The notes under the pieces: generated by a model | Databases searched by the model: none | Told to the model about the DNA's origin: nothing | The model's input: only the letters and a program-made list of their open reading frames with translations | NCBI GenBank assembly: GCA_030648815.1 | Contig: JAUSHA010000029.1 | Span: 1 to 19,473, forward strand | DNA: 19,473 nucleotides | Direction: 5' to 3' | Origin: a bacterium | Lineage (GTDB): Bacteria > Patescibacteriota > Minisyncoccia > Minisyncoccales > MHMH01 | Shown here: piece by piece, positions 12,390 to 13,197 of the stretch | How the letters are laid out: each line of letters starts with the position of its first letter | How positions within the stretch are numbered: the first letter of the stretch is position 1 | Made by a program: the position numbers and the translations under genes

Positions 12390-12422
12390 AAGTTGGGCGG
12401 ACGTCGGGTCTCCGCCCAACTT
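12390..12422. repeat. REP-like palindromic element, copy 1 (downstream flank of the RAYT gene).
   Basis: AAGTTGGGCGG-ACGTCGGGTCT-CCGCCCAACTT, a 12-bp stem. Core GGGCGGACGTCGGGTCTCCGCCC. Lies between the RAYT stop and the hydrolase start, and is followed by TTTTATT. Confidence 0.75.
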
Positions 12423-13160
12423 TTATTCTAGAAATAACTCATAATATTCTTTAAATTTTCCTTTATATTTTATATAATCTTCAATAAATTTCTCGCACGC
12501 TCTTTCACCACCCGTGGTTTCTAACATAAATTCTCTATCTGTTACTGATGGAAAATTCGGCTTTCCTAAATAATCAGAAAAACTTGACCATTTATACTCT
12601 TTCGCAAATTTTATAGCTTTCTTTATGTCGCGGATGCCCCTTTCTTTCCATTTCGGCTCTATCAAGGAAACTGAATTAGCATGAATATACGCAAAAACAA
12701 TTTTTAACTGTTCGTCAGTCTTGATGAGGACTGACAAAAATCTGTTCTGAAAAACGTAACCCTTGCGGCCATGTTTTAAATTAAAATATCTAGCATACCC
12801 GCCGCCGAATTTCTTCATAAATTTCACAATTCCACCATCTTTAATCTGTCTTATTAATAAATGAATATGATTCGGCATCAAACAAAAGGCTATAATTTCC
12901 ACAAGTTTATCTCGTAAATCAGTTTGGGCGGACGTCGGGTCTCCGCCCAAACTCTCTGTTTTTTTGAGATATGCCTTCATTCTGGAGCGATCCCTTCGAC
13001 GCTTTAAAATCTCTACCGGATTTATTGTATTAAATTCGTAAATAGAAAAAATCCCCCGATAATAGTCATTGGTATCTTTGAAAAGTTTATTATCATCAAT
13101 GCCCCTTAAAATAACGTGATAAATTCCGTCGTTAATAAATTGTTCTTTTCTGTATGGCAT
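12423..13160 (-). CDS. REP-associated tyrosine transposase (RAYT / TnpA_REP; IS200-like HuH Y1 transposase).
   Basis: N-terminal GIYHVILRG, HuH motif CLMPNHIHLL, GYVFQNRF (cf. WQxRF), catalytic-Tyr helix AYIHANSV. Flanked by inverted REP copies. Start assigned to the ATG (MPYRKEQ...) at 13160. The track's upstream start (MLGGRRVSAQTHN) reads through REP copy 3 and is probably not real. Confidence 0.78.
   Translation of the reverse strand: MPYRKEQFINDGIYHVILRGIDDNKLFKDTNDYYRGIFSIYEFNTINPVEILKRRRDRSRMKAYLKKTESLGGDPTSAQTDLRDKLVEIIAFCLMPNHIHLLIRQIKDGGIVKFMKKFGGGYARYFNLKHGRKGYVFQNRFLSVLIKTDEQLKIVFAYIHANSVSLIEPKWKERGIRDIKKAIKFAKEYKWSSFSDYLGKPNFPSVTDREFMLETTGGERACEKFIEDYIKYKGKFKEYYELFLE
12922..12952. 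repeat. REP-like palindromic element, copy 2, lying in frame inside the RAYT coding sequence.
   Basis: GTTTGGGCGGA-CGTCGGGTC-TCCGCCCAAAC, a perfect 11-bp stem in the same orientation as copy 1. It translates on the minus strand as ...ESLGGDPTSAQTD... in the linker between the N-terminal strand and the HuH motif. Confidence 0.75.
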
Positions 13161-13167
13161 ATTGTGA

Positions 13168-13197
13168 GTTTGGGCGGAGACCCGACGTCCGCCCAAC
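13168..13197. repeat. REP-like palindromic element, copy 3 (upstream flank of RAYT, inverted relative to copies 1 and 2).
   Basis: GTTTGGGCGGAGACCCGACGTCCGCCCAAC. Its core is the exact reverse complement of the copy 1/2 core. Located between the YchF stop (13199) and the RAYT ATG (13160). Confidence 0.75.

Follow-up and report, generated by a model that had tools for sequence, protein, structure and literature searches.

The window analyzed here, that is, the whole 19,473-nt stretch of contig JAUSHA010000029.1 (assembly GCA_030648815.1; G+C content 42.8%), carries a gene for a protein resembling the REP-associated tyrosine transposases (RAYTs; REP, repetitive extragenic palindromic sequence), together with three copies of a single palindrome. 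These elements probably form a REPtron-type module of a Nealsonbacteria-like Patescibacteria genome, in which the gene of a RAYT-like Y1/HuH endonuclease acting on single-stranded DNA (ssDNA) is accompanied by three cognate palindromes. Two copies abut the start and the stop of the gene, while the third one is embedded in frame in the segment encoding a disordered loop between helix αB and strand β2. This three-site layout is ancestral to a large protein family.

Three copies of one palindrome at the transposase gene

The Y1/HuH transposase-like gene (RAYT-like, class 2 of TnpAY1) occupies positions 12423–13160 on the minus strand and encodes 245 amino acids (aa) plus the stop; it was characterized by Pfam, full-length homolog alignment, AlphaFold2, Foldseek, and the ratio of nonsynonymous to synonymous substitution rates (dN/dS). 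The 23-nt core of the palindrome, GGGCGGACGTCGGGTCTCCGCCC, occurs exactly three times in the window, at 12395–12417 (+), 12926–12948 (+), and 13172–13194 (−), and none of 200 dinucleotide-preserving shuffles contained a match. Each core extends into a perfect palindrome (12390–12422, 12921–12953, and 13170–13196, respectively), for which ssDNA folding energies of −10 to −14 kcal/mol and z-scores of −3.6 to −6.3 were predicted. The upstream copy, reading TTGGGCGGAGACCCGACGTCCGCCCAA on the plus strand (13170–13196), lies 2 nt past the ychF stop and 9 nt ahead of the transposase ATG, and the downstream copy, a 33-nt perfect palindrome (12390–12422), directly follows the TAA stop of the transposase gene and precedes the ATG of a serine hydrolase gene by 9 nt. 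The loop of the upstream copy is inverted relative to those of the internal and downstream copies. An earlier sequence-only reading of this DNA had described the gene as bracketed by GC-rich palindromes in opposite orientation, one after the ychF stop and one after its own stop, and indeed the flanking loops are reverse complements of each other. That description covered two copies, and the third exact copy, in frame inside the open reading frame (ORF), was omitted from it. The setting, taken for AT-rich in the same reading, is only moderately so in the window.

The internal copy (12921–12953) is perfectly palindromic over 33 nt, its stem measuring 12 bp and its loop 9 nt, and its center falls on the second base of the Pro75 codon. 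It encodes codons 70–81 (SLGGDPTSAQTD; 12918–12953, minus strand), which form a variable linker in the protein alignment and include residues 75–79 with a predicted local distance difference test score (pLDDT) below 50 in the structural model. Read in frame, the palindrome gives SLGGDPTSAQT (residues 70–80), located N-terminal to the HuH motif. Furthermore, the upstream and internal copies constitute a perfect 31-nt inverted repeat (12924–12954 and 13166–13196), which encloses the first 211 nt of the gene region.

The mechanically called ORF is longer (258 aa, 12423–13199) and opens at an ATG within the upstream hairpin. Since all homologs begin at MPYRK, the true start is the MPYRKEQ at 13160, which gives the protein of 245 aa. 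The 13 extra codons (MLGGRRVSAQTHN; 13161–13199) run through the upstream palindrome and represent a possible false start for gene callers; some database homologs are 251–262 aa long, which may be the same artefact.

Domain, fold, and selection of the protein

The Pfam domain Y1_Tnp (PF01797) matched the protein with 43.3 bits against a cut-off of 23, over residues 83–161 only. Among the NCBIfam models, REP_Tyr_transpos (NF047646) was the top-scoring one with 45.1 bits, under its equivalog cut-off of 80, and transpos_IS200 (NF033573) reached 16.9 bits against a cut-off of 55. The alignment to such profiles, which the sequence-only reading had proposed as a check, thus supported the Y1_Tnp domain and ranked the RAYT model first at a score below its threshold. 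The motifs on which that reading had based a RAYT-type HuH protein (HIHLL and YIHANSV) were found in place, as N97-H-I-H100-L-L and Y158-IHANSV. The HuH motif H98-I-H100 lies within MPNHIHLL (12861–12869, minus strand), and N97, H98, and H100 were invariant in 25 aligned homologs, as was Y158. Based on the alignment, the model, and the class-2 signature Y---NP (PMC6006769), Y158 (12687–12689, minus strand) is the putative catalytic tyrosine; it belongs to the motif YIHANS (family consensus YIHxNP) of helix αD. In the window protein the N of this motif is kept and the P is replaced by S, which corresponds to the class-2 type Y---N(P) and not to the IS200-type Y---Q.

The AlphaFold2 model of the 245-aa protein had a mean pLDDT of 77 and contained, in order, β1 (13–20), αA (30–42), a long Lys/Arg-rich αB (48–70), a disordered loop (71–86), β2 (87–94), β3 with the HuH motif (98–105), αC (110–129), β4 (137–146), αD with Y158 (149–166), and a helical C-terminal extension. 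In this model, the palindrome-encoded residues coincide exactly with the disordered surface loop between αB and β2. The best Foldseek match in the PDB was 4ER8, the E. coli RAYT bound to a REP hairpin (E = 1.3e-6), followed by the TnpA proteins of IS608, IS200, and ISDra2, and the E-values against 4ER8, 2A6O, 2F4F, and 2XM3 ranged from 1e-6 to 1e-4. A search of PDB sequences with the family profile returned only marginal matches to ISDra2 TnpA (E = 0.04). The features of the HuH superfamily, namely the motif on β3, the single tyrosine on αD, and the fold, were all recognized in the sequence and the model. Comparison with four relatives gave dN/dS values of 0.10–0.13 at saturated synonymous sites (dS >1), and such low values indicate that the enzyme is under purifying selection.

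Conservation of the three-site layout in the family

Relatives of the protein make up a large family in Patescibacteria, with Nealsonbacteria and “Patescibacteria group” as the source names: a word-indexed search gave 1657 matches, and an exhaustive search gave 141 cluster representatives (clusters of 50% identity) at E <1e-30, nearly all of them 220–250 aa long. Forty-four complete loci encoding proteins of 36–100% identity were fetched; these are metagenome contigs with at most 10 kb of readable flank, and repeats can break such assemblies. The linker codons 45–95 of each gene were compared with the flanks within 120 nt, and a shared G+C-containing word of 12 nt or longer was counted. The linker shared such a word with a flank in 35 of the 44 loci and with both flanks in 25, whereas among 156 other ORFs of at least 200 aa from the same loci, which served as controls, 7 shared one with either flank and 1 with both. 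The upstream and downstream flanks shared a word with each other in 31/44 loci. The upstream hairpin ended 2–38 nt before the ATG, and the downstream hairpin abutted or overlapped the stop codon.

The linker holding the internal palindrome is hypervariable in the protein alignment. When 41 distinct sequences were aligned on the palindrome center, positions 3–8 from the center were Watson–Crick paired in 80–100% of them, while shifting the partner by one position lowered this to 17–49%. All four pair types were used at stem positions 7 and 9–11, and an inner core of about GAGG-W-C-C-G-W-CCTC was conserved. The center of the palindrome fell on the second codon position (codon phase 1) in 37/41 loci. 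This constant phase shows that the internal palindrome goes back to one ancestral event and was altered later by substitution, not by repeated insertion. The three-site layout is ancestral to the family. A first impression that the internal hairpin occurs in all three reading frames proved to be an artefact of variable stem length, as the phase is constant when measured from the center. Likewise, a background control counting any palindrome of at least 6 bp with at most one mismatch was uninformative, because AT-rich sequence yields them in 102 of 131 sequence windows. Among the 21 loci in which loop orientation could be scored, the upstream and downstream loops were mutually inverted in 16, and the internal copy matched either one. 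No asymmetric tag (GTAG or CGTC) was found beside the palindromes, the feet of which are symmetric and A/T-rich (AAAGT...ACTTT, AGC...GCT).

Concerted and compensatory changes of the palindromes

The palindromes of different lineages are wholly different (GGGCGGAG..., AACAGAGG..., ATTGGGAGG..., TTACGGAGG..., AGCGGGTG..., GTGCAAGG..., and TAACGAAG...), while the three copies within a single locus are identical or nearly so. Stems that differ between lineages and match within a locus indicate that they covary and evolve in concert. The same was seen on a finer scale. In locus L090, where the unit occupies the same ychF site, GGAAACCC replaced GGAGACCC (GGAG-to-GGAA) in all three copies, and in L089 an ACGTCC-to-ACCTCC change (...GACCTCC...) was likewise present in all three. 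In L087, a compensatory pair (GGTCGGA...TCCGACC) was detected in the internal copy and not in the downstream flanking one. Between loci whose third codon positions are only 58–63% identical, the REP core differed at 1–2 of its 23 nt.

Cognate palindromes in housekeeping genes

Palindromes of the same kind were also found in other genes of related contigs. The exact core of the window occurs once in each of two contigs of a sister genome, metagenome-assembled and assigned to Nealsonbacteria (JACOYG01), in L001 at 200–222 and in L002 at 2174–2196. Both copies are in frame, within LepA (L001, ...PPPKAGGDPTSAQLRALIFDS...) and SecA (L002, ...KNKLGGDPTSAQTDILPEAF...), respectively, and the cores in SecA, LepA, and the RAYT linker share orientation and codon phase, all of them encoding GGDPTSAQ. 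Compared with palindrome-free orthologs, the length of the protein increased by two codons in SecA and by three in LepA. L087 contains two additional cognate copies, one in an HI0933-like gene and one in enolase, where it falls within the linker joining the N- and C-terminal domains. In L044, the linker that separates the domains of alanine racemase contains a cognate doublet, at a distance of 8 kb from the RAYT gene of the same locus. An intergenic cognate doublet was seen in L005, and L025 is a further locus with extra cognate copies. A 19-nt core scanned against viral contigs gave no match.

The same slots are occupied by different palindromes in different genomes. In SecA, the slot holds GGDPTSAQT in L002 and AATGAAACGGGGTCGGACCCCGTTTCATT in L094, and palindrome-like peptides were found in other homologs. 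As for the HI0933-like gene, L087 has a cognate REP in the slot, L093 a palindrome of the GAGAAC type, L091 TAGCGAAGAGATTTTCGCTA, and the window TGCCTGCCGGCAGGCA. The latter is a perfect 16-nt GC-rich palindrome (11348–11363, minus strand) within the HI0933-like gene (10564–11838, minus strand), located in the same codon slot as the palindromes of the relatives and encoding part of an extra segment (AMPAGRQGKDIS) of the window's HI0933-like protein; no other copy of it was present in the window or in the 95 loci searched. In a partial SecA from sample P0281, the slot reads GGNPTSAQ, which matches the L090 variant GGAAACCC at the peptide level. In L095, SecA (10001–12390) is called as two adjacent genes, and a long imperfect palindrome encodes an insert of 23 aa (GNKPARIATPARNAVSTAGWQSV) in its N-terminal loop; a neighboring deoxyhypusine-synthase-like gene (6305–8383) has intein, Hint, and HNH matches.

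Considering these slots, we tentatively put forward a broader idea, which we ourselves hold to be doubtful: RAYT-type enzymes of Patescibacteria might maintain palindromes at conserved in-frame slots, namely in their own gene and in loop or interdomain-linker segments of essential proteins (SecA, LepA, enolase, alanine racemase, and the HI0933-like flavoprotein), and overwrite them in place with the current palindrome type at almost no change of length. Such overwriting would explain both the unrelated palindromes in orthologous slots of close relatives and the joint change of the three copies at the RAYT gene. If true, short segments of proteins would be rewritten in nature by a “hairpin swapping” mediated by HuH enzymes.

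Filled and empty junctions downstream of ychF

The unit directly follows ychF in the window, in L090, and in L087, where the order is ychF, REP–RAYT–REP, and the HI0933-like gene. By comparison, in L091, L092, and L093, whose YchF proteins are 88% identical to that of the window, only 3–7 nt separate the ychF stop from the ATG of the HI0933-like gene, and these empty junctions contain neither a hairpin nor a transposase gene; L093 belongs to the same ENA assembly as L087. The filled and empty junctions indicate that the hairpin–gene–hairpin unit behaves as a discrete insertion or deletion. L091 encodes a different family member (43% identity) at a distance of 7 kb, and three identical hairpins of its own (TTAACGAAGAACGACATCGTTAG) accompany that gene. 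Members of the family were found in varied neighborhoods (ychF, MurJ–LepA, M50–ProRS, dNK–ClpB, and NAD synthase), and a second copy of the same unit was found in no locus. The retention of the unit at the ychF site in three lineages (window, L090, and L087) at dS >1 argues for long vertical residence, yet in sister genomes this site is empty and a different RAYT gene lies elsewhere.

Upstream of the RAYT gene of L025, a tandem duplication with a 517-nt period was observed (5996–7048), in which a 148-aa ORF is present twice. Both units end in the palindrome ACACCGGTCTTACCAGTGT, which also abuts the RAYT start, and the duplication could be palindrome-mediated.

Transcriptional context and neighboring genes

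All genes from approximately 18.9 kb down to a leuA-like gene (9044–10606) lie on the minus strand, so the co-directional run from ychF to the leuA-like gene is unbroken, as the sequence-only reading had stated. A promoter scan detected no σ70-like minus-strand promoter between ychF and the transposase gene, and the gene is therefore probably co-transcribed with ychF. The suggestion that the REPs may double as terminators was not borne out: no T-run follows any copy on inspection by eye, and a terminator scan, which allowed loops of 3–8 nt only, found no terminator-like site at any of them. A strong intrinsic-terminator-like hairpin with 14 pairs and a T-rich tail is situated upstream of ychF (14364–14395, minus strand), between ychF and a 420-aa ORF (14413–15675) with no Pfam match, and the transcription unit to which ychF, the RAYT gene, and the genes downstream of them belong may therefore begin just past it. 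Scanning of the 12300–13300 region against Rfam at a permissive E-value gave only a chance T-box match (21.9 vs. 93 bits). Farther away, an 830-aa ORF (6516–9008, plus strand), opposite in strand to all large neighboring ORFs, matched the Pfam families MVP_shoulder, Vault_3, and Band_7; it is an SPFH or major-vault-protein-like protein encoded by a member of the Patescibacteria.

Proposed mechanism and alternatives

Judging from the fold, from the catalytic residues, and from how closely the palindrome follows the protein lineage, recognition of a hairpin on ssDNA with subsequent cutting and rejoining is the most likely mechanism. E. coli TnpAREP binds REP hairpins only as ssDNA, and its cleavage proceeds via a covalent tyrosine intermediate with strand transfer between REP-associated sites (PMC3333891). 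By analogy with this enzyme and with IS608 TnpA, on which the binding, cleavage, and copying steps are modeled here, the protein would bind the hairpin form of the palindrome on ssDNA, for example, at the replication fork, and would cut and rejoin the strand beside the hairpin by means of Y158 and a HuH-bound metal. The palindromes could be copied or swapped in this way between resident sites, so that the copies stay matched with their length unchanged and reading frames survive. New sites might occasionally be seeded or overwritten, and the whole unit would be moved rarely. The match among the three palindromes would be maintained either by this activity of the enzyme or by gene conversion among them. 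The internal copy appears to reside as a substrate site in a disordered loop that tolerates it, with copying holding it to the sequence of the flanks, because the same palindromes occupy loops and linkers of unrelated proteins, because the internal copy was lost from some loci that keep the flanks, and because these gene-dense genomes leave little intergenic room, the spacers being only a few nt long. It may have a secondary role in damping the expression of its own gene, and the upstream hairpin, standing beside a start codon with no separate promoter, may also contribute to regulation.

Several observations weigh against a REPtron-type module. The 19.5-kb window holds no core copy beyond the three at the transposase gene, and only a handful of extra sites was present in approximately 240 kb of related metagenome contigs, so the REP family is low-copy at best. 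The aligned copies do not have the 5′ GT[AG]G tetranucleotide expected of REPs, and most stems are perfect, without the mismatch of the E. coli REP type, whereas E. coli TnpAREP requires both GTAG and the stem mismatch (PMC3333891). The protein missed the RAYT equivalog cut-off of NCBIfam (45 vs. 80 bits). The internal copy is absent from 6–9 loci that retain the flanking copies and is thus dispensable, and the variable relative orientation of the loops among loci argues against a strictly strand-specific mechanism. Homogenization of the copies could stem from ordinary gene conversion instead of the enzyme, and the precise absence of the unit from the ychF junction of close relatives is a behavior like that of an insertion sequence (IS). 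The arrangement had been called canonical REP/RAYT on first reading; the layout, in which cognate palindromes flank the gene as in a REPtron, the fold, and the Y---N(P) motif uphold this, while the profile score, the missing GTAG tag, the lack of further copies in the window, and the absence of the unit from the ychF junction of close relatives do not.

Three other explanations have to be weighed against this one. In the first of them, the unit is an autonomous IS200-like element, with the outer hairpins serving as the left and right subterminal ends, the enzyme moving its own 0.8-kb unit, and the internal hairpin being incidental. The exact hairpin boundaries, the precise absence of the unit from ychF junctions where YchF is 88% identical, the different neighborhoods of family members, the size and single-gene content, and the lack of room for a promoter from the upstream hairpin to the ATG are all in line with this. 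We nevertheless consider it improbable, as the tyrosine motif is Y---N(P) and not Y---Q, the transpos_IS200 model stays at 16.9 of the 55 bits, and the best fold match is a RAYT. Moreover, the unit carries the same palindrome at both ends, mostly in mutually inverted orientation (16/21 loci), instead of distinct left and right ends on one strand, solo palindromes and gene-free doublets exist elsewhere, no locus contains a second copy of the same unit, and the unit has stayed at the ychF site in three lineages with dS >1, which suggests long vertical residence. The palindromes may instead be mainly regulatory, acting either as RNA hairpins that limit translation or stabilize the mRNA in a read-through transcript from ychF, or as double-stranded DNA (dsDNA) operators bound by a protein dimer via the C-terminal helical extension, so that the gene would be autoregulated from sites at both of its ends and in its middle. 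The position of the hairpins (2–38 nt before the ATG, and abutting or overlapping the stop), the probable co-transcription with ychF in the lack of a σ70-like promoter, and the conserved inner core (GAGG-N-C-C-G-N-CCTC), which is compatible with sequence-specific recognition, speak for such a role, and there are precedents: IS200 limits its expression by 5′ hairpins, and REPs were proposed to down-regulate RAYTs (PMC3733652). As the main function it seems improbable to us, since RAYT autoregulation makes no sense in the unrelated housekeeping genes where the same palindromes stand in frame, and no T-run follows any copy. Sense-strand single mismatches in the internal copies, read by eye, were G·U and A·C in equal number (3 vs. 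3), a count too small to be informative. The operator form is further opposed by the rapid and free covariation of the outer stems, which suits a hairpin better, and by the inability of E. coli TnpAREP to bind dsDNA REP (PMC3333891).

The remaining explanation concerns the internal copy alone, which might be selected directly as a cis-element, for example, by forming a REPIN-like pair with a flank that lets the enzyme inactivate, invert, or reset its own gene. The single codon phase in 37/41 loci across saturated divergence, the compensatory double change of L087 not shared with the downstream flank, and the perfect 31-nt inverted repeat of the window (12924–12954/13166–13196) give this possibility some weight. 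In spite of these, we judge it rather unlikely, because several loci that keep the flanks have lost the internal copy, its orientation relative to the flanks is not conserved, and no inverted or deleted variant was found among the 44 loci; in addition, the in-frame REPs of TnpAY1 subclass 2.4, located in a peripheral loop, were judged likely to be of little effect on the protein (PMC6006769). On balance, a REPtron-type module with the internal copy as a resident site remains the reading that we favor.

Comparison with known systems

REP/RAYT systems are known chiefly from Proteobacteria, where REPs are abundant and extragenic. Our literature searches for RAYTs in Patescibacteria or in the candidate phyla radiation returned nothing specific, and Quentin et al. 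(2018, PMC6006769) make no mention of candidate phyla. The module of the window resembles the E. coli REPtron (tnpAREP, TnpAY1 subclass 2.2; Ton-Hoang 2012, PMC3333891; 4ER8) in its Y1/HuH enzyme, which has a single catalytic tyrosine and a motif of the Y---NP type, in the cognate palindromes that bracket the gene and are usually mutually inverted, and in the presence of gene-free palindromes elsewhere. It differs in the length of the protein (245 vs. 165 aa), which has a long αB, the REP-encoded loop, and a C-terminal helical extension of approximately 80 aa, as well as in the lack of GTAG, the mostly perfect stems, the apparently low copy number, and the third copy inside the ORF.

In-frame REPs within tnpAREP were described for subclass 2.4 (Bertels group 4) of Cyanobacteria and Bacteroidetes, where they leave the frame unbroken and were called unique to the subclass (Quentin et al., 2018, PMC6006769). 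In both cases, cognate REPs flank the gene and also sit in frame within it, encoding a peripheral variable region. In subclass 2.4, however, the insertions are variable, carry GTAG-tagged REPs, and lie between HuH and Y (β3:αC) (PMC6006769), whereas a single palindrome without GTAG is found here at a fixed site and codon phase in αB:β2, upstream of HuH. The motifs (FQ and YIHxNP here, WQ and YIxNNP there) and the host phylum are different as well. Compared by eye, the motifs are rather like those of subclass 2.1 (Bertels group 1; TIRYT): NHIH, FQ, YIHxNP, a WSS tail, and a length of 245 aa stand against NH[VYF]H, FQ or W[EQ], Y[IV]HLNP, SS in the tail, and 238 aa as the median (PMC6006769). 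The next-closest relatives retrieved, at 26–30% identity (locus L076), have NHVH, FQ, and YIHLNP. Nevertheless, subclass 2.1 was reported without nearby REP-like sequences and with terminal inverted repeats in some members (PMC6006769), in contrast to the apposed hairpins and internal copy seen here.

The likeness to IS200 (IS200/IS605 family, subclass 1.1) consists of the size of approximately 0.7–0.8 kb, the single Y1 gene, the hairpins at both ends, the lack of terminal inverted repeats, and the intergenic insertion, visible here as filled and empty sites. IS200, however, encodes a Y---Q enzyme of approximately 150 aa, its left and right ends are distinct and lie on one strand, and a genome contains several near-identical copies of it; none of these features was seen here. 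Intragenic REPs and the Rickettsia palindromic elements provide the parallel for the copies in housekeeping genes, being short in-frame palindromes in protein loops or linkers, and orthologous genes sometimes carry different REPs at roughly matching positions (Di Nocera et al., 2013, PMC3733652). The CGTC-type and Rickettsia elements are without a dedicated transposase, whereas the intragenic copies of L087 and L044 match the palindrome of the RAYT gene on the same contig, and the length change amounts here to only a few codons.

If our interpretation is correct, these results add Patescibacteria to the hosts of the REPtron layout; the motifs of the lineage concerned are like those of a subclass reported to lack REPs. 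They also indicate that in-frame REPs within a transposase gene are not unique to subclass 2.4, and here these have a single ancestral origin and a fixed phase, and change in concert with the flanks. For annotation, palindrome-encoded peptides (GGDPTSAQ, RGPSS, and similar ones) are to be expected in the protein loops of Patescibacteria, as are wrong starts within upstream hairpins. As the copies are few, the genomes tiny and gene-dense, and some copies lie in frame in essential genes, copying or replacement events would be length-constrained and easy to see, and the family therefore offers a clean natural system for testing in-place palindrome replacement by RAYTs.

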